A model generated the notes under the pieces. The model ran no database searches and was not told the DNA's origin. It saw nothing but the letters and a program-made list of their open reading frames with translations. From Candidatus Bathyarchaeota archaeon (GTDB taxonomy: Archaea > Thermoproteota > Bathyarchaeia > TCS64), in NCBI GenBank assembly GCA_043826455.1, contig JBDRQD010000021.1, positions 10,181 to 74,180 of the forward strand: 64,000 bases of DNA, read 5' to 3'. How positions within the stretch are numbered: position 1 is the stretch's first letter; every line of letters begins with the position of its first letter. Of this stretch, positions 14,694 to 64,000 are shown piece after piece. The translations under genes and the position numbers were made by a program.

Positions 14694-15302
14694 ATGGTTA
14701 CAATGACCGAGGCCGCCCGGTTCAAGCTCCTGGGAGGAACGCCCTGCCTGGACTTCGCCAACACCGTCGACTGGCGCAAAGGAGAGCCCCGGGAGCTGCT
14801 GAACAGCGTCCACGACCTCATAGACTGGGCCCGCCAGGCGGGCGTCATACCCGACGCAGACGCGGAGATACTACAAGAGGCCGCCAAGAGAGACCCCGGT
14901 GAAGCCGAGGCGCTCCTCAGGAGAGCCCTCAGCCTCAGGGAGACCATCCACAGGCTGTTCAAGGCCGCGGCCGAAGGCGAGGACCCAGACCAACGCGACT
15001 TGGAGCACCTCAACGAGGAGCTGGCCCAGGCCCTCAGCCACATGAAGCTGACCCGAATCGGCCCAGCCCTCACGCTCCAGCTACAGGGAGACGCAGCCGA
15101 GAAGATACTCTGGACGCTAGCCCACTCCGCGGCCCAGCTCCTAGCCTCACCCAGCCTCACAAGGGTCAAGGAGTGCGACGACCTCCGCTGCGGCTGGCTC
15201 TTCCTGGACACCAGCCGAAACGGCACCCGCCGATGGTGCAGCATGGATGACTGCGGCAACAGAAACAAGGCCCGCCGACACCACCAAAGAAAAACCAGCT
15301 AA
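14694..15302 (+). CDS. ABATE domain / CGNR zinc-finger protein
   Basis: CLDFANT; C....CGWLFLDTSRNGTRRWCSMDDCGNRNK. Confidence 0.93.
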   Translation: MVTMTEAARFKLLGGTPCLDFANTVDWRKGEPRELLNSVHDLIDWARQAGVIPDADAEILQEAAKRDPGEAEALLRRALSLRETIHRLFKAAAEGEDPDQRDLEHLNEELAQALSHMKLTRIGPALTLQLQGDAAEKILWTLAHSAAQLLASPSLTRVKECDDLRCGWLFLDTSRNGTRRWCSMDDCGNRNKARRHHQRKTS

Positions 15303-15378
15303 AACCAACCCAAAAAACCCACCCCCCCCCACAACCAACAAGCCACCACCCAACAAACAACAACCGACGGACACCAAA

Positions 15379-15483
15379 AACCACCACCACCGCCAAACAA
15401 CCCCGAAAAAGCCTCCAAACACGAAAACAAGCCTGAAAACCGGGAACCGCGGTGGCGGTGATGGGACCCCCCCTCCCCCCCAC
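15379..15483. repeat. Intergenic repeat family 1, copy A
   Basis: 105 bp, 99/105 identical to 63763-63867, same orientation. Confidence 0.95.
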
Positions 15484-15516
15484 GTGCACACACACGCAGA
15501 CAAGCCAAGAAAATAA

Positions 15517-15591
15517 TGGTGGGCCGAGCAGGGATCGAACCTGCGACCACCGCCACGTCAAGGCGATGTCATACCACTAGACCACCGGCCC
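15517..15591 (-). tRNA. tRNA-Val(GAC), CCA encoded
   Basis: gggccgg...tcggccc acca; anticodon loop tt-GAC-gt; GTTCGAT T-loop. Confidence 0.97.
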
Positions 15592-15628
15592 ACAGCGAAA
15601 TATAGGGAACAAGGAGCCGGTATAAAGT

Positions 15629-17644
15629 TTATCGGTGACCCAGCTCCACCAGCCCCATCCGCCCCAGCAGCCGGTACAGACCCACCAGATACTCCAGGTC
15701 CGTGGAACCCCTCTCCAGGCGCACCCTCTCACTCACCTCATAGAGGCTCCTGACCCCGTCCGTCCAGTACATGGCCAGCATCGCGGCGCTCCGCCCCCCC
15801 GGGTGGTCCTTATCCAGCTTCCTCAGCTCATCCTGCTCCACCAGGCTCAGCCTGGTGTCCCAGCCCCTGATGCTCCACGGGCCCCTATACACGCGGACCG
15901 GCACCATGGCGTCAGCCTCCTTCTCAAGCTTCCTCATCTGGGGCTTCCTGTAGGGCTTAGCCTCTTTTCCGCAAAGCTCAAGGACGCCGTTTATGGTCTT
16001 GGATGCGGCCTTCACCTGGGCCTTGGCCTCTGATTCCAGATCCTTCACGAAGCCCGCGACAGCCTCCTCTAGTGCCGCGTTCCCAGGCGCAAGCCTCTTC
16101 ACCGACTCCACGGCCTTAACCGCCACCTCCACCCAGTAGGCAGCCTGGGTCTTCAGTTCACGGGTATGTTTCGGTGCCTCAGATAGATCAACCGAGGCCT
16201 TCTCCACGTACGCCCTGAACCGCTCCAGCAGCAACGCCTTCTCCCTGCTGTAGGTCTCCGACGCGATCCAGGCCGCCTCCGCCGGACCCGCCGAGGCCAA
16301 GAAGTAGGTGTAGGTGGCCGTCACCGCGGCCGCCCTCCACAGCATGGACGGGTCCACCTTGTCCAGGGTGTCATAGCTGGTGTGCCAGAACTTGTCGGGC
16401 CACTGGATGAGCATGGGACAAGGCACCCCCACAGTGGGGTCACTGTACACGTAGTGGTCGCTGCCTCCGCTGAAGGGCGTCGTGGTGTGTCTGAACAGGG
16501 CGTAGCTGCTGCTGCCCCCCAGGTTCTTCACGTCCCTGGTCACCTCCTTGAATATGCAGGCCATCAAGCTGTTCACGTAGCTGGGGAACGCCTCCGGAGT
16601 CCGCTCCACGATGAAGCTGCCACTGGTGACGCACTGCCGCTCACCCACCATGTCCAGGTTCACAGCCGCCACCATGTCAGGTATCTCGGACTCCCTCGAC
16701 GCAAGATGCGCGTAGCTGCCGCTCATCTCGGGAACCAGGGTGAACACTATGCTCCTCCTGGGCCTGGGCAGCTCACCGGACTTGATGAGCTTCTGGAGGA
16801 CCCTGGCCGCCTCCAACGCAGCGGCCGAGCCTGAGGCGTTGTCGTTGCAGCTGGGCTGGGGGTGGCATATGTGGGCGACCACCACCACCTGCTCGCCTGT
16901 GTTACCCCTGATGACAGCGTAGGCGTTGTCCAGCACCCCATCATGGATGCTGCTCTCCACCCTAGCCTTCACCCGCACCGGTTTCTTGCTATCCTTGATT
17001 AGGTCCCGGAGCCACCTGCCCCTCCTGGGCGTCAGCACGTACCCGAAGCCGGGTTTCTCGTCCCCCGCCCACCAGAAGCTCGTGTACTTGAGGGCGTCGT
17101 CCAGCTCCCCCTCCGGCGTGTCAGGTTCCCTGATCCAGGTCCCGTAGTAGATGAGGCCCAGGGCCCCCCGCTCCTCCACCGCCAGCCTGTGAACCCTCTG
17201 AACGTCGCCGTCGGTGAGCACCATCCTGCCCCTCACGTCCACGCCTCTGTAGTCCTCAGGCTCCTCCCCCTTGCCCACGTAGACCACCTCGGCCGTCACG
17301 GGGCCAGCCGGGTGGCTCCTCTGGATGAGGCTCAGCTTGGACTCCTTCCACCTGGCCAGGAAGCACGCCTTCTCCTGGGGCTCCACCAGCTCCAGCTCGG
17401 CGTCCCTGCAGTTCCACTCTTTGAACATGAGGCTGCTCCAGGCGTACCCCTTACCGTCCGCCGGGTAACTGTGTACCTCGGATTCCAGGCCGTTGGCCTT
17501 GAAGGTTTCCACGGCCCACGCCACGGCGTCTGAGAGGCCCGGGCTGGCCTGGATCCTGTGGTGGCCGCTGATCTCCGCCACGTAGTTGAGGGCGATCTCG
17601 CCGGAGGCCTCTTTGGAGACCTTGTCAAGAACCTGTTTGAACAT
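15629..17644 (-). CDS. DUF4910 / M28-family aminopeptidase-like protein with PA domain
   Basis: AHICHP..CNDNASG, VPE, NLDMVG, GSDH, WHTSYD. Confidence 0.88.
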   Translation of the reverse strand: MFKQVLDKVSKEASGEIALNYVAEISGHHRIQASPGLSDAVAWAVETFKANGLESEVHSYPADGKGYAWSSLMFKEWNCRDAELELVEPQEKACFLARWKESKLSLIQRSHPAGPVTAEVVYVGKGEEPEDYRGVDVRGRMVLTDGDVQRVHRLAVEERGALGLIYYGTWIREPDTPEGELDDALKYTSFWWAGDEKPGFGYVLTPRRGRWLRDLIKDSKKPVRVKARVESSIHDGVLDNAYAVIRGNTGEQVVVVAHICHPQPSCNDNASGSAAALEAARVLQKLIKSGELPRPRRSIVFTLVPEMSGSYAHLASRESEIPDMVAAVNLDMVGERQCVTSGSFIVERTPEAFPSYVNSLMACIFKEVTRDVKNLGGSSSYALFRHTTTPFSGGSDHYVYSDPTVGVPCPMLIQWPDKFWHTSYDTLDKVDPSMLWRAAAVTATYTYFLASAGPAEAAWIASETYSREKALLLERFRAYVEKASVDLSEAPKHTRELKTQAAYWVEVAVKAVESVKRLAPGNAALEEAVAGFVKDLESEAKAQVKAASKTINGVLELCGKEAKPYRKPQMRKLEKEADAMVPVRVYRGPWSIRGWDTRLSLVEQDELRKLDKDHPGGRSAAMLAMYWTDGVRSLYEVSERVRLERGSTDLEYLVGLYRLLGRMGLVELGHR

Positions 17645-23603: not shown

Positions 23604-23604
23604 G

Positions 23605-25061: not shown

Positions 25062-25209
25062 GGAATCCAGCTAAAAGCAATCCAAATTTTTTCACATTCT
25101 TCCACGCAGCTGTCATCAACGCCTTAAATTCGTTAGCTTGTAACAAACCCCGGAACCCCAGAGAACCACCCTAAAAAACAGGAATACCCAGCCACTAGGT
25201 ACAAACCCT
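25062..25209. repeat. Intergenic repeat family 2, copy A (modules A-C-B)
   Basis: Three modules shared with 52421-52541 (28/29, 25/29 and 22/23 identity). Confidence 0.85.
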
Positions 25210-25226: not shown

Positions 25227-25299
25227 TGGACTGGGGGGGATTCGAACCCCCGACTTCTGACTTGCGAAGCCAGCGTTCATACCACTGAACTACCAGCCC
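25227..25299 (-). tRNA. tRNA-Ala(CGC)
   Basis: gggctgg/ccagtcc acceptor with G3:U70; ctggc-ttCGCaa-gtcag; no encoded CCA after the discriminator. Confidence 0.97.
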
Positions 25300-25399: not shown

Positions 25400-26008
25400 C
25401 TAAGTGCTCCTGAAGGGGATCGTCCTCTCCTCGGCCCCACCGGCCTTCAGTATGAGCAGATCTATGCCGTCGCCGCTCACAGCGTCCCTGGCTATGGCCG
25501 CCTTCATAGCCTTAAGCGCCAGCTTGACCCCCGCCTCGCAGTCCAGGCCCTTGCTGTAGTCAGACTCCAGCACCCCCATGGCTATCGGCGCCCCGGAGCC
25601 CGCGGATATATAGTCGTCGGGTATGAGGCTGCCCACCAGGTCCATGCTATACAACTGGGGCCCATCAGGGTCGACGCCCCCCACCAGCGTCTCCATGATG
25701 AGGGGCATCATGCGTCTGTTGAACAGCATGTTGGAGATGAGCTTGCTCATGGCCTTCGTGGTGATGGGCCGCCCCTTCTCCAGCCTGAACAGGTTGGCGT
25801 AGGCCTCGGCCTCCCTGACCAGGGCCTGCATGTCGCTCATGAGGCCCGCAAAGGCAAGGCCTATGTTGTCTGTGAGCTTGAACACCTTCTTGCCGCTCTT
25901 GCTGCTTATGAGGTACCCCCAGCTGACCCTCTTGTCGCTGGCTAGCACCACGCCGTCGCTGCAGACCAGGCCAACCGTAGTGGCCCCCTGTATCGCTTGG
26001 TAGCCCAT
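25400..26008 (-). CDS. psmB: Proteasome beta subunit
   Basis: TTVGL..DGVVLASDKR, AGLMSD, GSG, RD..SGDG. Confidence 0.95.
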   Translation of the reverse strand: MGYQAIQGATTVGLVCSDGVVLASDKRVSWGYLISSKSGKKVFKLTDNIGLAFAGLMSDMQALVREAEAYANLFRLEKGRPITTKAMSKLISNMLFNRRMMPLIMETLVGGVDPDGPQLYSMDLVGSLIPDDYISAGSGAPIAMGVLESDYSKGLDCEAGVKLALKAMKAAIARDAVSGDGIDLLILKAGGAEERTIPFRST

Positions 26009-26062
26009 CTGTGCCTCACTTTCCAGAGTTGTTTACGGGACGCGCGATATATACGTTGCCCA

Positions 26063-27205
26063 TCACAGGCGGTACACCCTGCTCGTGTCCCGGGGCTTCC
26101 TCCACTCCACCGAGTATCCGAGGGCCTCCAGGACGGGCATGAAGTTCCTGACACCGTGGTTACGGAGGACGGACCGGGCCTCACCCAGGGTCTCAGCCCC
26201 CCTCAGAGCCTCTATAATCTCCTCCAGCTTCTCAGGGGTCACCAGGACGCCACCTAAGTCCTTGTACTTGAATCCCTCGTCCCTGATCTCCTTCAGCAGC
26301 CTGTCCTCTGTGACGCCCCTGCGGGCTGCCAGCTCCTCTAGAATTATGAGGTCGCCGTGCGGGGGCTTCTTGGGCTTCCTCGGCGTTATCTCTATGATGG
26401 TCTCCTCCTCCGCCGGGTCCCTCTCCAGTAAGCCGCCGTGGACGTCACTGCTGAGGGTGAGCACCCCCTGCCTCTTGTTGGTGGACGGGTAGTTGATGAC
26501 GGCCTCTAGGGTCCACCGGCCAGCCTTCAGGAGCCGGCCCATGAGCTCATCCACCCTGGAGCCCCTCATGCTGATGCGGTTAGTGGGCTTCATGGACACA
26601 CTCACGGTGTGAGCCCAAGTACCCCCGGACGCCTCCACGTCCCCCAGGGCGCCGGCCAGGGACTCCAGATACTCGTCTCTCCGCCCCGTGGCCACTGTGA
26701 TCCTTCTGCTATAGGCCAGGAGCGCCACAGTCTGAGCGTAGTTGTAGCGCCTGTTCAGCTCCTCCGGCGTCGGCTCCTTGAACTCGGCGACCCTCTGCTC
26801 CTCCTCTAGGTCCGCGTAGAGACTGGAGTCAAGCTGCGCTGCCTCGACGCCCAGCCTACCTGCCACCTTCTCCAGGACTTCCAGCCTCTCGGCTTCGGTG
26901 GTCACCATTTTAGCCCCTGCCTCCTTGAAGACCTCTGACCGCGCAGTGATCGGAGGCACGGCCGAGTCCACAGCGAAAAGGGTTCTGCTATCCAGGACCG
27001 AGGCGAGGCCCCTCACCAGCCTGTAGTCGTATCCCAGCTCCTCGCAGTCGGACACTGCCTCCAGCAGCTCCCCCCTCATACGGTCCACGTGGTCCACATA
27101 GACCGCTATTAGGGTCTTGGCCAGGCTCGTCTCGTCCCCCAGGAAGATGGGGCGCAGGACCTCGCCCCTCCTGTACACTCTCAGGTGCTCCGTGGGCAGC
27201 ATCAA
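26063..27205 (-). CDS. DUF790/Bax1-like XPB partner
   Basis: MLPTEHL, YRLVRGL, LYADLEEE, RRYN...Q..L; 4-nt overlap with the helicase. Confidence 0.85.
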   Translation of the reverse strand: MMLPTEHLRVYRRGEVLRPIFLGDETSLAKTLIAVYVDHVDRMRGELLEAVSDCEELGYDYRLVRGLASVLDSRTLFAVDSAVPPITARSEVFKEAGAKMVTTEAERLEVLEKVAGRLGVEAAQLDSSLYADLEEEQRVAEFKEPTPEELNRRYNYAQTVALLAYSRRITVATGRRDEYLESLAGALGDVEASGGTWAHTVSVSMKPTNRISMRGSRVDELMGRLLKAGRWTLEAVINYPSTNKRQGVLTLSSDVHGGLLERDPAEEETIIEITPRKPKKPPHGDLIILEELAARRGVTEDRLLKEIRDEGFKYKDLGGVLVTPEKLEEIIEALRGAETLGEARSVLRNHGVRNFMPVLEALGYSVEWRKPRDTSRVYRL

Positions 27206-48832: not shown

Positions 48833-48946
48833 TTATTAATGGTGTTTGAACCTAATATACCTCCCTATTGTGTGTCAGCTTTAGACTAGCGCTTTTGATG
48901 TTTTTTATACAATAAAAGGGGAGGGGTTTGTTTTCATCTGGTTTTT

Positions 48947-49210: not shown

Positions 49211-49378
49211 TTTGGTCTCCTTCTCGGTTCCACTGAGCGTTTGCTGAAAGTAGAACCTGTCGAATATTGCCCAAAAATACTATTAATATTTTTTGCCAAA
49301 AACCGGTATTTTCACAAAATTTGCGTTGCATCTAGTTTACAATGTACAGCGGCCTCTCACCGTTGTGGAATCTCTTCA

Positions 49379-51563: not shown

Positions 51564-51613
51564 AACGCGGGACACACCCACCCCTTTTTTATCACTCAAC
51601 CCAACAAGGTACC

Positions 51614-52330: not shown

Positions 52331-52420
52331 AAATCACTAAACGCGCAGCCATTGTAATCGACCACCTAACACACCACTGTGAGACACTGGCTAAAGGAGA
52401 AGACAGGGTCACCTCAACCA

Positions 52421-52541
52421 GGATTTAGCTAAATGCAACTCGAAAAAATATCACATTCTTCCACACAGCTGTCATCAACCCCCCTAAAATCGACAATTCC
52501 CAGCCACCAGGTACAAACCCTGGAACCCCAAGGAACAACCC
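52421..52541. repeat. Intergenic repeat family 2, copy B (modules A-B-C)
   Basis: Shared modules with 25062-25209. Confidence 0.85.
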
Positions 52542-52556
52542 CCATATTTCACGTAA

Positions 52557-52778
52557 CTATAAGCCACCTGTAACGAGGCCAGCCTGAGTCCACTCCTCGC
52601 ACTCCCGCAACATGATCACAGACTCCACATACCCCAGCCGCTCACAGTAGCAGAACTCCCCCAGGTCAAACCCCACCCGCTCCAAGGCGTTCACGATCTC
52701 CTTGTTCTCCTGACCCAGCCCCAGACGCACCTCCCCCTCAATTACCCTGGCGTGAGCACAGCCCCCACAGGTAACCAT
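52557..52778 (-). CDS. 73-aa Cys-rich hypothetical protein
   Basis: MVTCGGCAHA...FCYC...C..W. Confidence 0.5.
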   Translation of the reverse strand: MVTCGGCAHARVIEGEVRLGLGQENKEIVNALERVGFDLGEFCYCERLGYVESVIMLRECEEWTQAGLVTGGL

Positions 52779-52866
52779 CAACAAAACCAACGCCCCCCAC
52801 CATATCAGCGTTAGGGCAAACAATAAAAACAGAGCCACCCCAGATACCCAGAAAGAGGCACCCCGC

Positions 52867-53550
52867 ATGACCATCAAAGGAATAGTCTTCGACCTCGACA
52901 GCACCCTCGTAGACAGCCACGTAGACTTCGCCAAGATGAAGCAGAAGATCATCCACTACCTGGAGGAGAACGGCCACCCGAAGGCCGCCCTCAGCCCCAC
53001 GACCCAGACCACCGTCCAGATCATGGAGGAAGCAGAGAAAAACTGGGCCAAACAAGGAAAAACAGAGCAACAGAAACAGCGCATGAGAGACAAGACAACA
53101 GAGTACATGGACCAAGGCGAACTGGAGGCCATCGAGACCCTAACAGAGATACCCGGCGCAAAACAAGCCGCAGAGCAGCTCAAAGCCCAAGGCTACCAGC
53201 TCGCCATCCTCACCAGAAGCCACAACCAGTACGCAGTAAAAGCCCTGGAGAAGACAGGCATGACTCACCTATTCAACCCCGTCCTCGGCCGAGGAGAGAC
53301 ACCCCAACCCAAACCCTACAAGGAAGCCCTGGAGCACACCGTTAAAATCATGGGCCTCAGCATCGACGAGGTCATCATGATCGGAGACCACCAGATAGAC
53401 CGCGACAGCGCCACCAACAGCGGCTGCCCCTTCATAGGAGTCGCCACAGGCCACAGGGGCCTCAAGAGCTGGGCCGACGAGAAGCCCCCTGCCGTTCTCC
53501 TAGGAAGCGTTTCCGAGCTACCAGCCTACATCCAGAAGAACCGCACGTAA
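52867..53550 (+). CDS. HAD-superfamily hydrolase
   Basis: FDLDSTLVDS, ILTR, KP, IGD...D. Confidence 0.93.
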   Translation: MTIKGIVFDLDSTLVDSHVDFAKMKQKIIHYLEENGHPKAALSPTTQTTVQIMEEAEKNWAKQGKTEQQKQRMRDKTTEYMDQGELEAIETLTEIPGAKQAAEQLKAQGYQLAILTRSHNQYAVKALEKTGMTHLFNPVLGRGETPQPKPYKEALEHTVKIMGLSIDEVIMIGDHQIDRDSATNSGCPFIGVATGHRGLKSWADEKPPAVLLGSVSELPAYIQKNRT

Positions 53551-53625
53551 AAAGAAAGCCTTTTTATCCCAACCAAGACCCCTATACAACAAATCCCGGA
53601 CAAAACCACGCCCGGAGATGTCTAC

Positions 53626-53898
53626 TTGAGCCCGATAAAAGATGAGTACAAGAAGAAACTCGACCAAGCCATGTCCATACTCAACATGATCGCCGACGAC
53701 AACACCACCCCCCGCAACATCAGGCGCACCGCCAAGCAGGCCGCCGACATGCTACTAGACGAGAGCATCAGCGTCGCGGCCAGAGCAGCCAACGCCATAG
53801 CCATCCTGGAGGACATAAGCCAGGACCCCAACATGCCCATGTACAGCCGAACCCGCATCTGGAACGCCATCAGTGTCCTGGAAGGCATCCGCGACTAG
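53626..53898 (+). CDS. UPF0147 family protein
   Basis: D.TTPRNIRR.A, DPNMP...RT.IW. Confidence 0.93.
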   Translation: MSPIKDEYKKKLDQAMSILNMIADDNTTPRNIRRTAKQAADMLLDESISVAARAANAIAILEDISQDPNMPMYSRTRIWNAISVLEGIRD

Positions 53899-53936
53899 AT
53901 ACTTTTAATCAGAACCCACCCTTTCTAATATTCAAG

Positions 53937-54884
53937 GTGAACCCAGTGAACAGAAGGTTCGACTTTGAGGGACCCAAAATAGAGGGATACGGAGTAGTCG
54001 CCATAGTACTCATAATAGCCGTCGGAGGCCTCTTGTTCTTCAGCGTAGGCCGCATCAGCGTAGGCTACGTCGCCGTCGTAGTGGACCCCGTATTCGGGAC
54101 GACCAACGTCGTGGGCACAGGAGCAAACGCCCAATACTTCATAAAGGCGCCCTGGGCCACAGTCTACAAGATATACGTGGCCACCGACAGCGTCCACATG
54201 TGGAGCGACGCCAGAGAGGTCGGAGACTTCCCGGCCGTGGAGAGCCTCACCAAGGACGGCCTCAAGGTGGACGTGGACATAACCATACGGTGGAGCATAC
54301 TACCCAGCGAAGCAGCTGACCTCTTCCGCAGATACCCCGGCCTCGACTGGAAGGACCGGGCCATCATCCCCATCATCCGGGAGACCATCAGAAACCTCCT
54401 GGTAGATTACTCGGCCATAGAGACCATAGAGCTGAGAGCCAGCCTAGGAGTAGCATTAAAGACCAGCCTGGAGAAAGCCCTGGAGGAGGAGTCCTCCCTG
54501 TCCAACGCGGTGGTCCTTGACGCCGTCAACATCAGAAAGATCTCTCTCCCAGACAACTTTGTGAGCGCCATAGAGAAGAAGCTGGCCGCCGAGCAGCTAG
54601 CTATAGCCGCCGAGTTCAACAAGACCCGCTTACTCGTCATAGCCGACGCCAACGCCCAGTCCGCCATCAAGGAGGCCCAGGGCCTAGCGGCGTCCCGCCT
54701 CATCATAGCCAACGCCACAAAGCAGTCAATGATGATCATCGCCCAAGCCAACCCAGAGATAGACCCCGCGGAGCTAGCCAAACTATACCTGTACCTGGAG
54801 ACCCTCAGAGACATAGCCGCCTCAGGTAAAAGCCAGTTCATAATAGTCCCCGGCGACAGCCCCTACATCCTCAACATACCCTAA
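53937..54884 (+). CDS. SPFH/band-7 (prohibitin-like) protein
   Basis: N-terminal TM, TKDGL.V.VD, IE.K..AEQ, Ala/Glu coiled coil. Confidence 0.9.
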   Translation: MNPVNRRFDFEGPKIEGYGVVAIVLIIAVGGLLFFSVGRISVGYVAVVVDPVFGTTNVVGTGANAQYFIKAPWATVYKIYVATDSVHMWSDAREVGDFPAVESLTKDGLKVDVDITIRWSILPSEAADLFRRYPGLDWKDRAIIPIIRETIRNLLVDYSAIETIELRASLGVALKTSLEKALEEESSLSNAVVLDAVNIRKISLPDNFVSAIEKKLAAEQLAIAAEFNKTRLLVIADANAQSAIKEAQGLAASRLIIANATKQSMMIIAQANPEIDPAELAKLYLYLETLRDIAASGKSQFIIVPGDSPYILNIP

Positions 54885-54926
54885 ACCATTTTATTTCCAA
54901 GAAACCCAATTATAAACGGTGCCTTC

Positions 54927-55250
54927 TTGCAGACCGAGACAGCCTCAGCCCCCTGGCTCCTGAGGCTCTCCTGGGAGGAGCTGACAACCCTAGCCGTATG
55001 TCTTACCCTGGACCTGCTTGAGCTAGCCGCACCCATGCTCCTCAGCCCACTCCTCGGGGACCTCCTGGACTTCACAGGCCTCATCTTCGCGGCAGTCTAC
55101 TTCAACTGGTTCGCCGCCATCAGCCTGCTGGAGCTCCTGCCTGGCCTGGACCCGGTGCCCTTCTTCACCCTAACCTGGCTTGCCTGGTACACCCACCGCC
55201 GCCGGAGGCTCAAGAAGAAGCTGGAGACAGAGCTGACGAAGTGGCTCTAA
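54927..55250 (+). CDS. Hypothetical membrane protein
   Basis: Hydrophobic, ELLPGLD..P..T..W motif. Confidence 0.65.
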   Translation: MQTETASAPWLLRLSWEELTTLAVCLTLDLLELAAPMLLSPLLGDLLDFTGLIFAAVYFNWFAAISLLELLPGLDPVPFFTLTWLAWYTHRRRRLKKKLETELTKWL

Positions 55251-55302
55251 GATATACCCTTTTTCCATAACCATTACATGACGAGGAGGAGCAGCTCACC
55301 CC

Positions 55303-55494
55303 ATGAAGCAGACAGGCCACATCTTTCCAGAGATATGGCTCTCCATCATAGCCGTGGTAGTGTTCTTCCCCATGATGTACATGCTCAGCCAGCAGAAGAG
55401 CTTCGACCTGTGGCGCTTCAGCCTACTCTTCACCCTAATAATAATCGTGGTGTACGGATACGCCTTCATCGACATGCGTAAAAGGCTCAGATAA
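55303..55494 (+). CDS. Small 2-TM protein
   Basis: Two hydrophobic helices; gaggag RBS upstream. Confidence 0.6.
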   Translation: MKQTGHIFPEIWLSIIAVVVFFPMMYMLSQQKSFDLWRFSLLFTLIIIVVYGYAFIDMRKRLR

Positions 55495-55547
55495 GCCCTC
55501 AGAATGTCTTTTATCTGCGAACCGCCTTACCAAGGCAGAGTCACAAG

Positions 55548-56570
55548 TTGAGAATCCTGTTTAACACTGTCAGATCTGATAACCTGGTAACCCTCAACGT
55601 ACTATACTACCTAGAACAGGAGGTAGCCAAACTTGCTGACTGTAAGTGGGGCGGCAGAGGCTGGGAGAGCCACGTCCCAAACGAGAACATTAACCAGACT
55701 ATCAAGAGGCTATACGGGAACGATCCACCCGACTTCATAGTTGACAATAACGCTGACATAGTGGAGTACACGAGGATCGCCGAGGAGAAGACGGCTGAGA
55801 CACCCAAAACAGTGATGACGGTAAACGACATGCACCTTGAACCCAAGAGATGGGTGGACATCGCCAACAGGGGGTTCAACGGCGCACTCATGAGGTACCT
55901 TTACTGCCCGTACGAAAAGAGCAAGATCCTTTCGAGATTCGATTACATCAAGAAAATGGATGAGTCGTATTACTTGGATAACCTGAAGATCCCTTACCTC
56001 CACTTCCCATGGTTCACCGATGAGAGAATATACAGACCCAGCGACGAAAAGGAGTACGACGTTATCTTCCTGGGGTCCTACAGAAAGAGGATCTATCCCC
56101 TCAGGTACGACATATACACAAACCTGCCGAAGCTATGCAAGGAACATAACTACAGGTACCTGCTGAGCGACAGGCCGCCCGGGAAAACGCCTGAGAGAAA
56201 CATCTCCGACCTGTCTAATGAGGGATACATTGTGGGGAAAGGCTACGCCGAGATCGTCGCCAAGTCAAAGATATTCATATTCGGAAACAGCATCTTCGAC
56301 TACCCCGTGTCAAAATACTTTGAAGTCATGGGGAGCGGCACACTGGTCATGGCAGATAAACCTCAAACAGAAAGAGAGCTGCACTTCGAGCCCGGCTACA
56401 ACTACGTTGAGATAGACAGGACCAACTGGAAAGAAAAGCTGAGGTACTACCTAGAAAACGATGACGAGCGGGAGAGGATAGCGCGCAACGGGTACGAGAC
56501 TGTGATGAAGTACCACAGCTCCAGGGTCAGGGCGAAGCAGCTCGTGGAGTTCCTGGGGAAGATGGGTTAA
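55548..56570 (+). CDS. Glycosyltransferase (CgeB-like, GT-B)
   Basis: YDVIFLG...YPLR, KYFE..GSG, ERERIARNG. Confidence 0.85.
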   Translation: MRILFNTVRSDNLVTLNVLYYLEQEVAKLADCKWGGRGWESHVPNENINQTIKRLYGNDPPDFIVDNNADIVEYTRIAEEKTAETPKTVMTVNDMHLEPKRWVDIANRGFNGALMRYLYCPYEKSKILSRFDYIKKMDESYYLDNLKIPYLHFPWFTDERIYRPSDEKEYDVIFLGSYRKRIYPLRYDIYTNLPKLCKEHNYRYLLSDRPPGKTPERNISDLSNEGYIVGKGYAEIVAKSKIFIFGNSIFDYPVSKYFEVMGSGTLVMADKPQTERELHFEPGYNYVEIDRTNWKEKLRYYLENDDERERIARNGYETVMKYHSSRVRAKQLVEFLGKMG

Positions 56571-56630
56571 AGTTCTAAATCGTCGGGCATCCCTTTTAGG
56601 TGTGTACCCACTTTAAAGGGGGAGAGAGCC

Positions 56631-57599
56631 TTGAACGCCGTGCTTCTGATCCTTGACGCCTTACGCTATGACCACGTCAACAAGGACAACACCCCTAACC
56701 TGATACGCGTGGCAGAGAAAGGCGTATTTTTCAGTAACGCCTTCGCCTGTAACTCCTCGACCATTCAAAGCATACCGTGCATCCTGTGCTCAGACACCGA
56801 GTATAAGCAAGACCACAATGTTGCATCCGTCCTAGGGGGGCAGGGCTACCACACGGCCATGATCCACAGCAACCCCATCGTGCACGCCTTCTACGGCGGG
56901 TTCAATGAGACCGTTGACCTAAAGTCCAGCAAGTTCAAGGTGAGCAAAGGCTGGAAGAAGGCCCTGAGAAGCAACCTCCCGCCCCAGATAATAGCCGGCA
57001 TGAAGAGGCTGCGAGCCAGCGTGTACGAGGACGACTCTTACCTACCCTACTCCAGGGCGCAGGAGACCCTGGAGTTCACCGGCAAATGGATGAAGGATCA
57101 CAGCCGGTACTTCCTGTGGGCGCATCTCATGGACCCCCACATCCCCTACTATCCCCAGAACACGAGCCTGGATATCACAAAGCACGAGATGAGGACCCTG
57201 AACGACAAGCTGATCGAGTCCGTTCACGGCAACTACACACCGAAACCGGAGGAAGTGGAGACAGCTAAAACCCTTTACAGTGAAGATATACACGAGATGG
57301 ACCACGAGATTGGCGTCTTCATGGAGGATTTCCCTGAGGATACTCTGCTGGTCGTCACCTCTGACCACGGCGAGGAGTTCGGCGAACACGGCCAGTACTC
57401 GCACCACGGAGACAAGATAGTGCAGGAGCTCGTCCACGTGCCTCTCATATTCTTCGGGTCGGGTGTGTCTGAGGGAAAGGTGATAGATGATCAGGTGTCA
57501 TCCTTGTCGATCGCGCCTACCATATTAGAGTCCCTGGGCGTAATTGAAACGATAGGGCGCGGACAATCACTTTGGCCCAGCATTAAGAAACATGGCTAG
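56631..57599 (+). CDS. Sulfatase / alkaline-phosphatase superfamily protein
   Basis: LDALRYD, HLMDPH.PY, TSDHGE..EHG..H, HVPLI. Confidence 0.9.
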   Translation: MNAVLLILDALRYDHVNKDNTPNLIRVAEKGVFFSNAFACNSSTIQSIPCILCSDTEYKQDHNVASVLGGQGYHTAMIHSNPIVHAFYGGFNETVDLKSSKFKVSKGWKKALRSNLPPQIIAGMKRLRASVYEDDSYLPYSRAQETLEFTGKWMKDHSRYFLWAHLMDPHIPYYPQNTSLDITKHEMRTLNDKLIESVHGNYTPKPEEVETAKTLYSEDIHEMDHEIGVFMEDFPEDTLLVVTSDHGEEFGEHGQYSHHGDKIVQELVHVPLIFFGSGVSEGKVIDDQVSSLSIAPTILESLGVIETIGRGQSLWPSIKKHG

Positions 57600-58450
57600 G
57601 TTAACCTTCTCTCATGGTACCTTTCCAGGGTCTCCCAGACCGCGTACTTCTTCACGAACTCGTAGAACTGGGCTGGGAAGGGCCTCTTCAGTCCGCCCAG
57701 CGCCGTTAGGAGGTGGGCTAGAAACATGGATAGGCCTCCGATTATCCATGGGCTGTGCTTTGCGTAGACTATGGATATGAGGAAGGTGTGCCAGCTTGGG
57801 AACCCCATGTAGTACCGGGACCTACCTGAGAGTATCCATCGCCTGAGGCTTCCTCTTCTCCATGTTCTGAGCTGCGTGTACCTGATCTCCGGGTACGACT
57901 CCACGGCCCACCTGAAACGTTTGGCCTGGAGGAGGGCGATGGTGTCGAAGGCGTTGCATGGGACGAAGTGTTTTATGTCGTCCCAGCACCTTCGGCGGTA
58001 GACCTTGGCGCCGTCGGACGCTCTCCCCCTCCACACCTTCTCGTCCTGGGGCGTCCCGCTTGTCAGCCCTAGCCGGGGGTTCTCCTTGAACCTGTCTACG
58101 AGGCTTGTGAAGTAGTCGGGGGGGAGGACGCTGTCCGCGTCCACCTTCAGGAGGTAATCCCAGTCGGGTACAAGCTCCGTCGCCTTTTTTATGCCGGCGT
58201 TGAGGGCCCAGGCTAGGTTGACTCCCCTGGTTTGGTGTCGGGGGTTCTCCAGTCTGACCACCTCGATGTCTTTGAACTGCTCTAGTATCTCGGGGGTCTT
58301 GTCGGTTGAGCCGTCGTCCACGATGACGTACGCTGCCGGCGGAGGGCTCTGGGAGAGGACGCCCCGGATGGTCTCGGCTATGAGTTTTTCTTCGTTTCTT
58401 CCGCTCGTAAGGGCCACGTACCGCAGTTCTGTCCTCTCCACGAAACACAT
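57596..58450 (-). CDS. GT2 glycosyltransferase
   Basis: RNEE, VDDGSTD.T, DAD. Confidence 0.9.
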   Translation of the reverse strand: MCFVERTELRYVALTSGRNEEKLIAETIRGVLSQSPPPAAYVIVDDGSTDKTPEILEQFKDIEVVRLENPRHQTRGVNLAWALNAGIKKATELVPDWDYLLKVDADSVLPPDYFTSLVDRFKENPRLGLTSGTPQDEKVWRGRASDGAKVYRRRCWDDIKHFVPCNAFDTIALLQAKRFRWAVESYPEIRYTQLRTWRRGSLRRWILSGRSRYYMGFPSWHTFLISIVYAKHSPWIIGGLSMFLAHLLTALGGLKRPFPAQFYEFVKKYAVWETLERYHERRLT

Positions 58451-58552
58451 TAACAGCCCTCGGGGGCAGTTATATGATTTACCGGCTTTTTCGTGTCATA
58501 CTGAACATTTTATTAACCCAGGCATGGAGTGTTTGTTAACCGGGTGATCGAT

Positions 58553-60376
58553 TTGTGTGGCATTTTCGGATGCATTATCAGGGAAGGTCGGGCCGTTAAG
58601 CTCATCACGGATGGTTTGAAGCGTCTCGAGTACCGCGGATACGACAGCATAGGAGTCGCCGTGATCAAGGACGGCCAGCTTCAGGTGCGGAAGGACATGG
58701 GGAAGCTGGAGGAGGTGGTGGCCTCTCTAAGGATCAACGAGATGGAGGGCGCCTTGGGCATGGGTCACACGCGGTGGGCGACCCACGGGGCGCCCAGCAT
58801 GGTGAACGCTCATCCTCACCTGGACGGCTCTGGCCGGATAGCATTGGTGCATAACGGGGTCATCGAGAACTATATGGAGCTTAAGGAGGAGCTTATGGAG
58901 AAGGGCCACAACTTCGTCTCCAGGACCGACACCGAGGTCATTCCCCACTTGATCGAGGAGGAGCTGAAGTCGGATGTGGGTCTTAAAGGCGCTATTCTTA
59001 GGGTGCTGAGGCGGCTTAAGGGGTCCTACGCCATCGTGGTGGTCACCAGCTTGGATGCTGACAGGATATATTGTGCTCGATATGAGAGCCCCCTGGTGAT
59101 AGGGGTCTCGGACACTGGAACCTACTGTGCCTCGGATGTGCCTGCTATCCTTCCCTACACTAACAAGGTGAACTACTTGAGGAACGGGGAGATGGCTGTC
59201 CTGAGCCTTGAGGGCTACGAGATCGTCAAGATATCGGATGGTTCTCTGGTGGATCGGGGCCTGGAGGAGATCCAGTGGAGCATCGAGATGGCCGAGAAGC
59301 AGGGGTACCCCCACTTCATGCTGAAGGAGATATATGAGCAGCCTGACAGCCTTAGGAACGGGCTGCGCCTCCAGGAGCAGTACGTGAACCTGCTCACCCA
59401 GTTCCTTGACCGGGGTAAGGAGGTCTACCTTACGGCGGCGGGCACCAGTTACCACTCCTGCCTTGCGGCCAGCTACGTGTTCTCCAAGCTTTCGCGTCTT
59501 ACTACTAATCCGGTGGTCTCCTCCGAGTTGACTGAGAGGTACGGCTCGACTGTGGGCATAGACTCCATTGTGCTCGCCATCAGCCAGTCGGGTGAGACCT
59601 ACGACACGTTGAAGGCCATTGACCACGCCAGGATGAGGGCTGCCACTGTGCTGGGGATCACCAACACGGTGGGCTCGACGCTGACCAGGGTGTCCAGGGC
59701 TTACATTATTCAGCAGTCCGGCCCCGAGATCGGGGTGGCCGCAACTAAGACCTTCACGTCGCAGGTGCTGGTTCTTGCGCAGCTGGCTTTGAGGCTGGCG
59801 AAGCAGAGGGGTAAGCTGAGCCAGGACGAGCTGGATGAGCTTGAGGCCGACATCAAGAAGGTGCCTGACTGGGTGCAGGAGACCCTGGACATGTGCTCGG
59901 AGAAGACCAAGGCGCTTGCGGAGAAGTACTTGGATGACAAGCTGTTCCTGTTCCTGGGGCGGGGTGTGAGCTCCGCCACAGCCCTGGAGGGGAGGCTTAA
60001 GCTGCTGGAGATAACCTACGTGCCAGCTCTCGCGTACCCTGCTGGGGAGAGCAAGCACGGCCCCATAAGCATCATAGAGGACGGCGTGACCTGTGTCTTC
60101 ATCTGCCCCCGGGGGGACACCCACAGTCATATAATTGGCAGCATTATGGAGATGAAGGCCAGGGGCGCCAGGATACTGGCCATCTGCGAGGAGGGGGACG
60201 AGGAGATTAAGCGGCTGTCAGATGACTTCGTGGAGATGCCTAGGGGCATCCCTGAGGCTCTGAGCCCCATCCCGTACGTCGTCCCCATGCAGCTGATCGC
60301 GTACCATCTGGCCGTATTGAAGGGCTTGGACCCGGACATGCCCAGGAACCTGGCGAAGAGTGTGACGGTTCCCTAG
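58553..60376 (+). CDS. glmS: Glutamine--fructose-6-phosphate aminotransferase
   Basis: MCGIFG, EYRGYDS, HTRWATHG, SQSGET, PRNLAKSVT. Confidence 0.98.
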   Translation: MCGIFGCIIREGRAVKLITDGLKRLEYRGYDSIGVAVIKDGQLQVRKDMGKLEEVVASLRINEMEGALGMGHTRWATHGAPSMVNAHPHLDGSGRIALVHNGVIENYMELKEELMEKGHNFVSRTDTEVIPHLIEEELKSDVGLKGAILRVLRRLKGSYAIVVVTSLDADRIYCARYESPLVIGVSDTGTYCASDVPAILPYTNKVNYLRNGEMAVLSLEGYEIVKISDGSLVDRGLEEIQWSIEMAEKQGYPHFMLKEIYEQPDSLRNGLRLQEQYVNLLTQFLDRGKEVYLTAAGTSYHSCLAASYVFSKLSRLTTNPVVSSELTERYGSTVGIDSIVLAISQSGETYDTLKAIDHARMRAATVLGITNTVGSTLTRVSRAYIIQQSGPEIGVAATKTFTSQVLVLAQLALRLAKQRGKLSQDELDELEADIKKVPDWVQETLDMCSEKTKALAEKYLDDKLFLFLGRGVSSATALEGRLKLLEITYVPALAYPAGESKHGPISIIEDGVTCVFICPRGDTHSHIIGSIMEMKARGARILAICEEGDEEIKRLSDDFVEMPRGIPEALSPIPYVVPMQLIAYHLAVLKGLDPDMPRNLAKSVTVP

Positions 60377-60416
60377 ACTGAAAAGGCTTAAGGGAGCCTA
60401 CATTTCTCTTACTTTG

Positions 60417-61628
60417 ATGAGTTTGCTCGACGTTAAACGTGTTCGTAAAGATTTTCCTATTCTCAACGAGGGTGTGATCTATCTTGACAGCGCAGCCAGC
60501 AGTCTGACCCCTGAGCAGGTGGTGCTCAAGGAGATGGAGTTCTACAGGCATTACAGGGCGAACGTGGAGCGCGGTGTTCACAGGTTCAGCCAGAAGGCCA
60601 GCGAGGAGTATGAGCACGCCCACCAGGAGGTGGCCCGGTTCATAGGGGCACCGGGCCCGGAGAATGTGGCTATGCTGCGGAACACCACCGAGGGCATCAA
60701 CCTTGTGGCTAACAGCCTCGACTGGAGCAAGAAGGATAAGATAGTGACCACGGTCATTGAGCATCACTCCAACTTCATAACCTGGCTGAGGGTCGGTAAG
60801 AGGTATGGCACCAAGATCGAGGTGGTCAAGTCCGATACTTCAGGTGTCTTCGATCTTGGAGACTTCGAGAAGGCCGTCGATGACAGGACGAAGCTGGTGG
60901 CGGTGACCCACGTCTCCAACGTCTTGGGGTGCATCGTTCCCATTAAGGAGATATGTGAGATCGCTCACAGCCACGGCGCCAGGATGCTGGTGGACGGGGC
61001 CCAGGGCGTGCCTCATATCAAGACGGACGTAGGGGACTCCGGCGTGGACTTTTTGGCTTTCTCGGGCCACAAGATGCTGGGGCCCACCGGCTCGGGCGGC
61101 CTCTACATATCGGATGCTGAGCTGGCATCCACGGAGCCTCTATGCATAGGCGGGGGTACCATTGCCGATGTGAGCATAGATGATTATGTGTTGGCTGTGC
61201 CGCCCATGAAGTTCGAGGCTGGGACCCCCGCCATCGCTCAGGTCATCGGGCTGGGCGAGGCGTGCAGGTACTTGAACAGGGTGGGCATGGGTAACGTGGA
61301 GGCTTGGGACCTGAAGCTGGCGAACCGGCTGATAGACGGTTTGACCGGGATCGACGGGGTTGAGGTCTACGGCCCCCTGGACCCTAAGCAGCGGGTCGGG
61401 TTGGCCACCTTCAACGTAGGGGACATGAATCCTCATGACGTTGCCCTCACGTTGGACGTTGAGCACGGCATCGCCGTGAGGTCGGGGCACCACTGCGCGC
61501 TGCCGCTCATGAAGGAGCTGTTCAAGTTGAACGAGGGTAACGCCCGGGCGTCCACGTACATCTACAACACGGTGGAGGAGATCGACGCCCTCGTGGCGGC
61601 CGTCGAGGACATAGCCCGGGACAGGTGA
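60417..61628 (+). CDS. sufS: Cysteine desulfurase, SufS type
   Basis: YLDSAAS, EHHSN, DGAQ, SGHKM, RSGHHCA. Confidence 0.93.
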   Translation: MSLLDVKRVRKDFPILNEGVIYLDSAASSLTPEQVVLKEMEFYRHYRANVERGVHRFSQKASEEYEHAHQEVARFIGAPGPENVAMLRNTTEGINLVANSLDWSKKDKIVTTVIEHHSNFITWLRVGKRYGTKIEVVKSDTSGVFDLGDFEKAVDDRTKLVAVTHVSNVLGCIVPIKEICEIAHSHGARMLVDGAQGVPHIKTDVGDSGVDFLAFSGHKMLGPTGSGGLYISDAELASTEPLCIGGGTIADVSIDDYVLAVPPMKFEAGTPAIAQVIGLGEACRYLNRVGMGNVEAWDLKLANRLIDGLTGIDGVEVYGPLDPKQRVGLATFNVGDMNPHDVALTLDVEHGIAVRSGHHCALPLMKELFKLNEGNARASTYIYNTVEEIDALVAAVEDIARDR

Positions 61629-61912
61629 CCCATTTAAATTGTTCTTAGAATTTCACTTTATCTGCTTCATCTGAGGTTTCGATTCATAAACCATCTTGGA
61701 ATGAGTCCTCCGCCTGCCAACTAAATGAAATTTGAAATTTCGCTGAGTCATATCTGATTGTTGACGTTGAGCTACGTCATCGATGTTCCAGAGAACTAGA
61801 TTCTCTTCCATAACCTTATCCTAATTAATCTAACAATCTACAGGCATTTTTAAGTAAATTTTATCTACCATTTAGGGTGATTAAACGTTCAAAGGTTCTG
61901 GAGGATTGAAAA

Positions 61913-63373
61913 GTGGTTAGAGAACTGAAAGAGGAGACACTCGACCCTGAAGACTGGGATGAGTTAAAAAAGTTAGGTCACAGAATGCTCGAAGATGCGT
62001 TAAATCATCTTCAGAACATACGAGACTTTCCAAACTTACAGCAGACCGATGACGAGTTGCAGAAGCTACTTGTACCTCTATCAGAAAAAGGCGAAGGAGA
62101 AGAACGAGTATATAACTTGGTAGCAGAGAATCTAATTCCCCACCATGTCAGTATGAGCAGACCTCAGTTTTGGGGGTATGTGGCAGGAACCGGCTCCCCT
62201 TATGGAGTCCTCGTGGACATGCTTCTCACTAGTAGAAACTCTGGTGGGGCAACTTGGGGAGATGTTCCAGTCTGGCTACAAGCTCAAAGTTGGATTAAAG
62301 AACTCCTCGAAGTGCCTAAAGAATACAGTGGGGTATTCGTTGCCGGTGGCTCAGAGGCAAACTATACAGGATTAGCCGTAGCTCGGAACGCCAAAGCGGA
62401 GGTCAACATGAAGACAAAAGGCATGCAGAACGTAGAACGGAAAATGGTTCTCTACGGCAGCGAAGAGATACATCACTGCTTGGAACGCTCAGTGGAACTC
62501 CTAGGTTTCGGAAGTGAAGCTCTCAGATGGATTCCTGTTGATGATGAATACAGCATCAAGCTGAACGACCTGAAAAAGGCAATAAAAGCAGATAAAAAAC
62601 AGGGATTGCATCCCTTCTGTGTTGTTGGATGTGCCGGGACAGTTAACACCGGTGCCTTTGACGACCTAAACGCCTTAGCTGACATATGTAAGCGTGAAGA
62701 CATGTGGCTGCATGTTGATGGTGCATTCGGTGCATGGGTGAAGCTCTCAGAGACTCACAAGCACCTGGCTGACGGGCTGGAGAGGGCTGACTCTATCGCT
62801 ATTGATCTTCACAAATGGATGAACATGCCTTACCCTATTGGTTTCACTATGATCAAGGATAAGGTAGCTCACTACAGCACCTTTGTGTATGGTCATGAGG
62901 CGAAGTATCTCGACACAATGCTTGGTAGTCTAGACTTGGAGAAATTAAATGTAATTTCTTCTCTGGCTCTGTCAAGGGAGAACTATGGTTTGAAGGCGTA
63001 CATGCTTCTCAGAGCTTATGGCAAAGAAAGGTACCGTAGACTTGTTCAGCAGAACATCGACCAGATCAAGTATCTTGCGGGACTCCTAGAAAAGGAGCCG
63101 AACATTGAGCTAACTGCTCCAGTTGTCTCGAACATCGTCTGTTTCAGGTATAACCCGGGGGGATTGTCTGAGGAACAGTTAGAGAAGCTGAACAGGGCGA
63201 TTCTTGGGGAGCTATGGAAGATCGTCATGTGGATGATATCTGACACCACTCTACATGGCAGATACACTCTGCGGGCATGCAATATAAACAACAGAAGCCG
63301 CAGAGAGGACTTTGACTTCCTCGTGGAAGAGATAAAGAAGATTGGGGCAAAGTGCGTTAAGGAATTAAGTTAG
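61913..63373 (+). CDS. Group II PLP-dependent (aromatic amino acid-type) decarboxylase
   Basis: GGSEAN, AGTVNTGAFD, HVDGAFG, DLHKW, NIVCFRY. Confidence 0.93.
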   Translation: MVRELKEETLDPEDWDELKKLGHRMLEDALNHLQNIRDFPNLQQTDDELQKLLVPLSEKGEGEERVYNLVAENLIPHHVSMSRPQFWGYVAGTGSPYGVLVDMLLTSRNSGGATWGDVPVWLQAQSWIKELLEVPKEYSGVFVAGGSEANYTGLAVARNAKAEVNMKTKGMQNVERKMVLYGSEEIHHCLERSVELLGFGSEALRWIPVDDEYSIKLNDLKKAIKADKKQGLHPFCVVGCAGTVNTGAFDDLNALADICKREDMWLHVDGAFGAWVKLSETHKHLADGLERADSIAIDLHKWMNMPYPIGFTMIKDKVAHYSTFVYGHEAKYLDTMLGSLDLEKLNVISSLALSRENYGLKAYMLLRAYGKERYRRLVQQNIDQIKYLAGLLEKEPNIELTAPVVSNIVCFRYNPGGLSEEQLEKLNRAILGELWKIVMWMISDTTLHGRYTLRACNINNRSRREDFDFLVEEIKKIGAKCVKELS

Positions 63374-63762
63374 TGACACATTTTCTCCTAATACTCTTCT
63401 TTTTTCAAATAACAGAAATTGTTATTGGTTGAGTTGAATTCTAGGCTTCCACGTAACAAAGCATGAGTCATGCACGCCACAAGCTAATCGAGAGGAGGAA
63501 TAGGCACAGCCTGAACGACCCCTAACCGCACCGATCCAGCATCAACCCGGAAACCCGCCAACTCAAGGCCCACCCCACCCAAGACAAACCCACCGAAAAG
63601 ACAGAGAAGAACCCATCAGCGCCATAAAACCACAACCACAGCATCAGCACCCCACAACCCAGCCAAGAAAAAACAAACCCCCCAACACCAAACACGCCCC
63701 AGGCGACCCCAGACCAAACCCGGCGAACGACGGAAAACCGGCGACCACCGCCAACCACCGCC

Positions 63763-63867
63763 AACCACCACCACCGCCAAACAACCCCAAAAAAGCCTCC
63801 AAAACAAAAAACAACCCTGAAAACCGGGAACCGCGGTGGCGGTGATGGGACCCCCCCTCCCCCCCAC
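63763..63867. repeat. Intergenic repeat family 1, copy B
   Basis: 99/105 identical to 15379-15483. Confidence 0.95.
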
Positions 63868-64000
63868 CCACACACACACAGGATAATCCAACAACACACT
63901 ATAAAACAAACATACCCAGCCACCAACAACCCACCCAACCATTCACACATCCATCACCGAACACACCCAAAAATGGACAATCACCATGGAAGCAGCAGAC

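Follow-up and report, generated by a model that had tools for sequence, protein, structure and literature searches.

Short oriented repeats accompany polar, kilobase-scale strand skew in a Candidatus Bathyarchaeota genome

Chi, Ter, KOPS and REP or MITE sequences occur in many oriented non-coding copies, and Chi is one-sided over kilobases. To our knowledge, none of Chi, Ter, KOPS and REP has been described as heading a compositional gradient. In vertebrate mitochondria, the heavy/light (H/L) strand asymmetry arises as C>T and A>G changes enrich one strand in G and T (PMC3269012). The keto skew of bacterial chromosomes was attributed to deamination on the exposed template (PMC10030826), and GRINS were defined as duplicated regions of >500 bp that are >80% identical to another region (PMC8256042). 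For archaea, a 2026 survey reported greatly reduced strand-specific mutation (PMC12999951). The present analysis concerns a stretch of 64,000 nucleotides (the window), the final 64 kb of contig C21 (JBDRQD010000021.1) of a Candidatus Bathyarchaeota archaeon, and short oriented repeats in it that adjoin zones in which one strand is rich in A and C. A sequence-only reading of the window had described four such repeats in the same orientation, near 15.3, 25.15, 52.5 and 63.5-64 kb, and had proposed that the minus strand is repeatedly exposed at these sites.

The skew was expressed as K = ln(A/G) + ln(C/T) at synonymous third positions, a measure in which GC shifts cancel, and as dK, its departure from the genome baseline (0.36-0.37), with the sign set by strand; dK values for the window are given in the plus-strand frame. 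The genome (G000), which is archaeal by its proteasome, Cdc6 and NucS genes, comprises 2.95 Mb in 81 contigs, and 3084 genes were called with a custom script. Profile searches yielded 43 matches to a repeat family A and 49 and 26 matches to the modules B1 and B2 of a family B, which were merged into 96 loci (56 plus, 40 minus); family B occurred without A at 53 loci. Eight of the 96 loci had too few sites. At 84 of the other 88, the downstream flank was A/C-shifted on the element's own strand, and inverted copies flipped the sign: the downstream value was positive at 47 of the 50 copies on the plus strand and at 37 of the 38 on the minus strand. Upstream flanks were positive in 65 of 89 cases, and control flanks in 54% of 1336. 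Genes within 1 kb downstream were positive in 57 of 65 cases if co-oriented with the element (mean +1.80) and in 4 of 60 if opposed (mean -1.93). Within 250 bp downstream, A/(A+G) at fourfold sites was 0.66 vs. 0.27 in genes read from the A/C strand; in genes read from the other strand it was 0.04, and C/(C+T) was 0.51 vs. 0.81. Among 113 raw 200-nt peaks, 65 had a same-strand element within 700 bp and none had an opposite-strand element only.

It is extremely improbable that this pattern stems from codon usage, the orientation of genes, the composition of proteins or an assembly artefact. Coding strands have a baseline excess of C (0.458, with G at 0.318, at fourfold sites), but the skew was measured against the baseline at synonymous sites. 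Because its sign reverses between gene orientations, the explanation by codon usage and orientation is refuted. The skew is also common to orthologues, and the sequence was matched by independent contigs: Logan contigs of run X1, possibly the source sample, were identical to positions 52732-58941 of the window with 0 differences. The sequence-only reading was to fall if gene orientation and codon usage explained the skew or if the skew did not follow the elements; the skew survived and tracked both the position and the orientation of the elements.

The zones are not centred on the elements, as had been assumed. A joint fit of skew against distance showed that they are polar, with a peak downstream that is gone by 3-5 kb, a shoulder of 1 kb upstream and a weak lobe of opposite sign further upstream. 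For families A and B together, the fitted values from 12 kb upstream to the element were -0.16, -0.23, -0.34, -0.21, -0.09, +0.40 and +0.84, and those downstream were +2.72 (0-500 bp), +1.44, +0.85, +0.44 and +0.07 (3-5 kb), with -0.14 to -0.21 beyond. The peak was located within 250 bp of the element edge, and zero was crossed 1-2 kb upstream (amplitudes of +2.7 vs. -0.3). The upstream lobe, supported by block-bootstrap intervals, was present in 22 of 27 isolated A copies and 28 of 42 B copies. When orientations were flipped by permutation, 0 of 200 runs reached the downstream value (null mean 0.84), which tests the symmetric part of the profile only. Peak values in the joint fit were +3.57 for A, +2.13 for B and +0.76 for a third family, C, which is about 345 nt long, has 58 loci in the genome and none in the window, and shows a weaker skew. 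The B1 copies closest to the consensus had stronger zones (rho -0.42, p 0.006, 1 of 9 tests).

Nearly all copies are intergenic, most of them at gene 3' ends, and 15 tRNA genes lie within 600 bp of an element in their own orientation. Repeats acting as promoters, terminators or R-loop sites could produce the asymmetry through exposure or repair during transcription, and coding strands show a weak general trend (+0.12 near gene starts, -0.11 to -0.22 near ends). The effect at the elements was nevertheless equal for either gene orientation. Of 33 tRNA genes lacking an element, 16 were positive, vs. 15 of 15 with one, and tRNA promoters were rejected as the cause on this ground. A TATA model derived from tRNA genes matched the A/C strand in one A copy out of 31, one B copy out of 16 and none of 27 B1 copies, matches in C remained below those in shuffles, and the promoter score was unrelated to skew (rho 0.04). 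The repeats A, B and C of this genome thus lack the make-up of a TATA/BRE promoter cassette, and transcription is a quite unlikely origin of the zones.

The relatives compared were G044, a close relative with a median protein identity of 94% (276 kb covered), G013 (505 kb; both mostly chosen around elements), G018 (240 kb) and the distant congeners G017 (382 kb plus 60 kb) and G007 (about 400 kb). Family A was detected in 4 of 40 relatives, and family B in 4 of 31 congeners. The dK of orthologues correlated with that in G000 (rho 0.82 for G044, 0.65 for G013), and where both genomes have an element the relatives were shifted too (21 of 25 genes in G044, 31 of 36 in G013). Genes downstream of a G000 element had a dK of 2.10 vs. 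0.57 in element-less G013 orthologues (n=10), 2.32 vs. 0.32 in G017 orthologues (n=18) and 1.61 vs. -0.02 in G007 orthologues (n=7). Extreme genes made up 4% and 2% of the genes in unselected DNA of G017 and G018, vs. 17% and 13% of the G000 orthologues. In G007 they amounted to 15% and were different genes from those in G000 (rho 0.07). This genome has a G-tract repeat of its own with positive downstream values at 17 of 18 copies with data (3 more had no data), a strong shoulder and a negative lobe 3-5 kb upstream; four regex matches outside the repeat family were near zero or lacked data. A two-module repeat of G017 was positive downstream in 21 of 23 matches, counts that cover only part of its 21 BLAST matches, and its family was detected in six other congeners. 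Syntenic junctions of G000 and G013 were occupied in both genomes in five cases, in G000 only in six and in G013 only in five, while 11 of 12 were shared by G000 and G044. Repeat turnover is fast. Family C was absent from three syntenic G013 junctions and has therefore spread recently; downstream of these three copies the DNA was unskewed (+0.42, -0.47 and +0.38). At the G013 site orthologous to the 15.4 kb element of the window (L083, L110), a further short repeat belonging to none of A, B and C was found, and it recurs at another junction.

The mutation spectrum was shifted near the elements. In pairwise comparison with G044, which is unpolarised and rests on few genes, the A/C strand had, over the first 700 bp, synonymous A/G differences of 0.149 vs. 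0.100 and C/T differences of 0.042 vs. 0.092. Pooled over 24 genes, C>T-class differences were about 0.082 far from elements, compared with about 0.035 near them on the A/C strand and 0.123 on the G/T strand. At twofold sites within 1 kb, split by gene strand (15 and 9 genes), the class reporting C>T was 0.020 and 0.054 for the A/C strand (far 0.079 and 0.084) and 0.153 and 0.078 for the G/T strand. The spectrum shifted in the same direction against G013, and polarised three-way counts for 82 genes gave, on the A/C strand, 0.058 vs. 0.034 for G>A and 0.032 vs. 0.042 for C>T. The earlier assignment of strands, by which the minus strand gains G and T through both transitions, was upheld by the synonymous-site shifts in G000. 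Total synonymous transitions against G044 were about 0.092 near elements vs. 0.096 far from them, transversions were 0.104 vs. 0.109, and first and second codon positions were unchanged. Among residues changed within 1 kb, T>C over C>T at codon positions 1-2 was 1.8 vs. 1.3-1.4 elsewhere. There was no preference for particular neighbouring bases, with shifts of +0.6 to +1.35 in all 16 contexts. The targeted mutator suggested in the sequence-only reading is left unsupported by the lack of both a neighbour preference and a net rise in divergence, and an APOBEC-like motif-specific deaminase was ruled out on the same two grounds. Loss of NucS as the cause was also rejected, NucS being present in 5 of 5 genomes.

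Exposure alone would raise one strand and spare the other, unlike these data. Since C>T was up on one strand and down on the other, a strand role that is otherwise randomly assigned would appear to be fixed locally. A fixed direction of replication would give redistribution with a conserved total, and the repeats might be polar fork barriers, pause or restart sites that impose one direction locally, with averaging elsewhere. By calculation, a direction bias of about 0.78 predicts a dK of about 2.5 vs. the 2.1 seen in the first kb. The opposite upstream lobe, also found in G007, resembles converging forks, and bacterial leading strands are G/T-rich (PMC10030826). A decay within 2-3 kb would demand very dense initiation, however, and the repeats showed no enrichment of the ORB motif and each genome searched had one Cdc6. 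A G-quadruplex block on the exposed strand was ruled out as a general cause, as the strand that carries the G-tract varies: it is the G/T strand in A but the A/C strand in C and in the repeats of G007 and G017, and B has no such tract. Polar forks are an unlikely explanation in our estimate.

Overall, the elements are modular repeats of 50-350 nt with lineage turnover. A-tracts are phased at 10-12 nt in family A and in the G007 repeat, and covariation in A was weak and confined to the triplet-repeat arms. A gap-free core of about 100 nt is common to the middle of family C and module E1 of the G017 repeat (36 of 38 matches; reversed control 0, shuffled 1). The same kinship test of E1 gave 2 of 31 for A and 1 of 17 for the G007 repeat, and its likeness to both is by eye only. 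No family folded better than its shuffles (mean z -1.0 to +2.5), and single A copies on the minus strand had z values of -2.25 and -1.81. Because of the gap-free C/E1 core and folding no better than that of shuffles, the repeats are suggested to be protein-bound duplex sites. The G-tract motif was found in 10 of 10 congeners, with a control count that was not zero. It also had 14 and 20 copies in G118 and G143, from other families of the class, where control counts were low, and similar repeats may exist outside the genus. Family C (e.g. contig C2, 23563-23903) has two G-tracts and a palindrome with co-varying arms, and a G-tract and a C-tract face each other only in composite C+A copies. Same-orientation neighbours accounted for 61 of 104 neighbouring pairs, and convergent neighbours were a median of 8.6 kb apart vs. 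25.6 kb for divergent ones. Truncated tRNA 3' ends follow the A copies at C25:12862, C67:17787 and C77:2455, an arrangement that recalls the attachment sites of integrated elements, and contig C67 holds two tyrosine recombinase genes.

The skew points to a local mechanism that decides which DNA strand keeps damage, and a locally fixed strand polarity of synthesis or repair fits better than a hot mutator or a strand-displacement origin. The repeats could be oriented, protein-recognised sites at which the A/C strand is repeatedly opened by a nick, a gap or one-sided resection. With the G/T strand serving as template, the A/C strand would then be re-made 5' to 3' for 1-3 kb. Deamination products of C and A on the template would be copied and fixed as C>T and A>G, and equal lesions on the replaced A/C strand would be erased, so that the G/T strand would serve as the master copy in which uracil and hypoxanthine become fixed. 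Over time, a polar amino/keto gradient would form across every neighbouring gene. The affected portion of the G/T strand ends on its 3' side at the element, a geometry expected if the A/C strand is removed and refilled 5' to 3' from the element, or if a gap persists downstream of a block. Strand-displacement initiation, as raised in the sequence-only reading, would on the model of PMC3269012 predict decay to the 3' side of the exposed strand, and decay was seen to the 5' side. R-loops or D-loops ending at the element may also be involved. The repeat as cause, the nick or gap, and deamination as the lesion are the parts that we infer. As a whole, strand opening and resynthesis is a tentative explanation to which we give a little less than an even chance; a causal repeat, acting by strand replacement or by fork polarity, is rather probable.

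Several results weigh against a causal repeat and its proposed action. Families A and B had no detectable shared sequence. Of 160 K peaks, 57 were at A or B, 11 at C and 6 at contig ends, and 86 had no A, B or C repeat; 41 repeat-less anchors had no motif in common, and four of them contain eroded copies. In the joint fit the repeats accounted for 17% of the variance. At the sites of the window, relatives with another repeat or none detected were also skewed: the orthologues of the CGNR and HAD genes had dK values of +2.72 and +2.66 in G013, the HAD orthologue had +2.37 in G017, and it was near +0.4 in G018 only. At G013-only elements the G000 orthologues were shifted too (0.79 vs. 1.14, n=12). 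Family C has the core of the active G017 repeat, yet is weak in G000 (+0.76). Copy age did not correlate with skew, and the upstream shoulder in G007 equalled the downstream zone in strength. The opposite upstream lobe (-0.2 to -0.3, 2-12 kb) is unexpected from a simple nick, and the polarised counts (82 genes, few events) showed no visible change in A>G or T>C. No candidate nicking enzyme was found: a single broken copy of the Y1 transposase was present in G000, and none was detected in G008, G013 and G044. No trans-acting protein was identified among the families searched, and TnpB exceeded the cut-off in G000 only (1 of 5 genomes).

The zones might instead be set by another process, such as fork restart, chromatin or transcription ends, with the repeats inserting or surviving in a fixed orientation where one strand is accessible. 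The orphan status of more than half of the peaks, the skew at the three testable window sites in relatives with different or no repeats, the preference for gene 3' ends and a residual strand skew that remained autocorrelated over 0-3 kb after fitting the repeats all agree with such passengers. Such passengers fit less well with the three family C copies in unskewed DNA, with a skew that tracks the repeat positions of each lineage and with a peak so close to the element edge. The orphans may be scars, because 11 of 16 occupied syntenic G000/G013 junctions have a repeat in one genome only. Passenger repeats are unlikely on balance. The phenomenon itself is real, and it is the causality of the elements for the zones that we infer.

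Within the window, the oriented repeats described previously were recovered on the plus strand, but they belong to two unrelated families and not to one. The first is a family A copy at 15373-15490, for which the nhmmer model shows a CCR-triplet arm, a spacer with phased A-tracts, a GGY-triplet arm and a C-tract. It is preceded by an extreme A/C leader (15301-15372, plus strand), which aligns with B1-bearing leaders of other copies and is probably an eroded B1-like module. The counts reported earlier, 59 of 60 A or C at 15301-15360 and 45 of 60 at 52621-52680, were exact; the former level occurs in 1 of 49,088 non-overlapping 60-mers of the genome on either strand, the latter in 290. The plus-strand ABATE/CGNR gene (14694-15302) in the upstream shoulder had a dK of +2.59. 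Downstream, a minus-strand tRNA-Val(GAC) gene (15517-15591) has its 3' end 27 nt from the A copy, and the minus-strand M28 peptidase gene (15629-17644) had +3.13 in its last 110 codons and +0.38 in its first 272, its skew falling from the 3' end towards the 5' part. The bias claimed for genes of both orientations was thus present at synonymous sites on both strands.

The second repeat, a family B copy with modules B1 and B2 found by profile search (25069-25209, plus strand), stands 18 nt from the 3' end of a minus-strand tRNA-Ala(CGC) gene (25227-25299). Its downstream zone (25400-27205, minus strand) is weak, with +1.42 in a proteasome subunit gene and +0.81 in the next gene, and the gene upstream had +0.20. 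The strongest zone of the window (51270-55494) covers eight genes of both orientations with dK values of +0.9 to +3.4 and contains a B1+B2 copy at 52425-52525 (plus strand, profile search). A minus-strand open reading frame at 52557-52781 had +2.61 in the plus frame, the HAD gene +2.67, the SPFH gene +2.21 and the GATase gene +1.76. Over 52501-53500, the GC skew was -0.38/-0.14 and the AT skew +0.38/+0.53. The last repeat, a family A copy at 63757-63873 (plus strand) with 88% identity to the 15.4 kb copy, is part of an intergenic block (63500-64000) with a plus-strand A/C content of 0.81, composed of a leader, the A copy and a B2-like module (63897-63937). No downstream gene is present inside the window at this site, and the gene upstream had -0.46. 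The contig end (63833-64000) overlaps the start of contig C35 with 95% identity, the first C35 gene had a dK of +6.2, and the gene order in G017 suggests that C21 and C35 are adjacent.

A picture of A/C enrichment alone is incomplete, as the window also has two zones of opposite sign in which the plus strand is G/T-rich at synonymous sites and no A, B or C repeat was detected. The first (33232-36143) had dK values of -1.77 and -1.30. The second (57596-61628; -1.65, -2.43 and -2.12) is situated 2-6 kb upstream of the 63.8 kb element and is partly present in orthologues of G013 and G017. Low-GC stretches (0.44-0.51) at 61500-63500 and 48000-49500, one of them with a PLP-dependent decarboxylase gene, were probably acquired. 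The only Rfam matches in the window were three tRNAs.

Strand-specific mutation is considered minor in archaea (PMC12999951); here it is strong but local. Because local skew cancels at genome scale, genome-wide skew plots would miss the zones. The zones offer sequence-defined, oriented positions for studying the start, stalling and patching of DNA synthesis in an archaeon. The bias extends to proteins, whose evolution may be steered by a mobile neighbour, and inference from codons may be distorted as well. A chromosome-wide system of at least 100 oriented, fast-turnover cis sites for programmed opening and re-synthesis of one strand is conceivable though doubtful; such sites could, for example, start recombination-dependent replication or refresh DNA. 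If such a system existed, each site would impose its own mutational polarity on nearby genes and proteins, and replication and repair would be organised in kilobase polar units and not in replichores.

Known element classes were compared with the repeats. An archaeal oriC was ruled out, as the repeats held none of the 60 matches to the ORB core (motif from PMC4164010) at one mismatch and 8 of 902 at two (10.7 expected), and the sign was the same within 1 kb on both sides, without a symmetric skew switch. Upstream of cdc6, the five genomes examined (L170, L169, L167, L168, L166) have a conserved motif that contains a C-tract and is not ORB; it was rejected as a key to the repeats. An A copy is located downstream of the cdc6 operon in G000 and G013. 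IS200/IS605 and REP/RAYT elements were rejected, with Y1 transposase in 4 of 32 genomes and ends unlike those of A, B and C. One IS605-type element with a stop in tnpA (L161, contig C11, 12716-14001) is unrelated to the repeats and lies inside a skew zone; the A/C zone upstream of it stops at its left end, as if it had been inserted into an older zone. The IS91/ISCR Y2 transposase was found in 0 of 5 genomes, with control genomes also giving no match. Integron attC sites were rejected, since no integrase exceeded the cut-off in 5 genomes (nor in the controls) and neither strand folded. With respect to MITEs, filled and empty sites exist and the alignments showed no clear target-site duplication. 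Retro-elements or diversity-generating retroelements were rejected with PF00078 in 0 of 5 genomes and positive controls in 3, and a known structured RNA with no Rfam match for the repeats and no folding above shuffles. Intense, correlated GC and TA skew in coding DNA, as in GRINS, was found, but a second copy of at least 300 nt existed for 7 of 281 strongly skewed genes, which excludes membership.

A literature search found no description of the pattern, with subscription journals and supplements outside its coverage. The zones share a positional gradient and an effect on the codons of genes on both strands with mitochondrial H/L asymmetry (PMC3269012). They differ from it in being chromosomal, with about 150 oriented sites and a scale of 1-5 kb; their skew decays in the 5' direction of the G/T strand, and divergence is not raised overall. 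Like GRINS (PMC8256042), they combine GC and TA skews that are local and correlated, occur in working genes and are most pronounced at third positions; unlike these duplicated coding regions, a short non-coding repeat heads a gradient of one sign and the genes are single-copy. The asymmetry of G+T vs. A+C independent of gene strand is shared with the bacterial leading/lagging keto skew (PMC10030826), whereas the present polarity has no replichore-scale pattern and resets every few kb at repeats. Meiotic break hotspots also have a site-anchored asymmetry of about 2 kb, there from resection, with mirror-image flanks and raised rates (PMC7615360). Here, by contrast, one flank dominates, the first upstream kb agrees with it in sign and the rate shows no rise. 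Unlike Chi, Ter, KOPS and REP, the present sites are modular repeats of the lengths and turnover given above. The mechanism behind the pattern may reduce to a known one. This analysis newly reports the upstream lobe, a redistribution that takes place without hypermutation, family C together with its relation to the repeat of G017, the recurrence of the pattern at other repeats in G007 and G017, and tests that speak against the tRNA-promoter and promoter-cassette readings.

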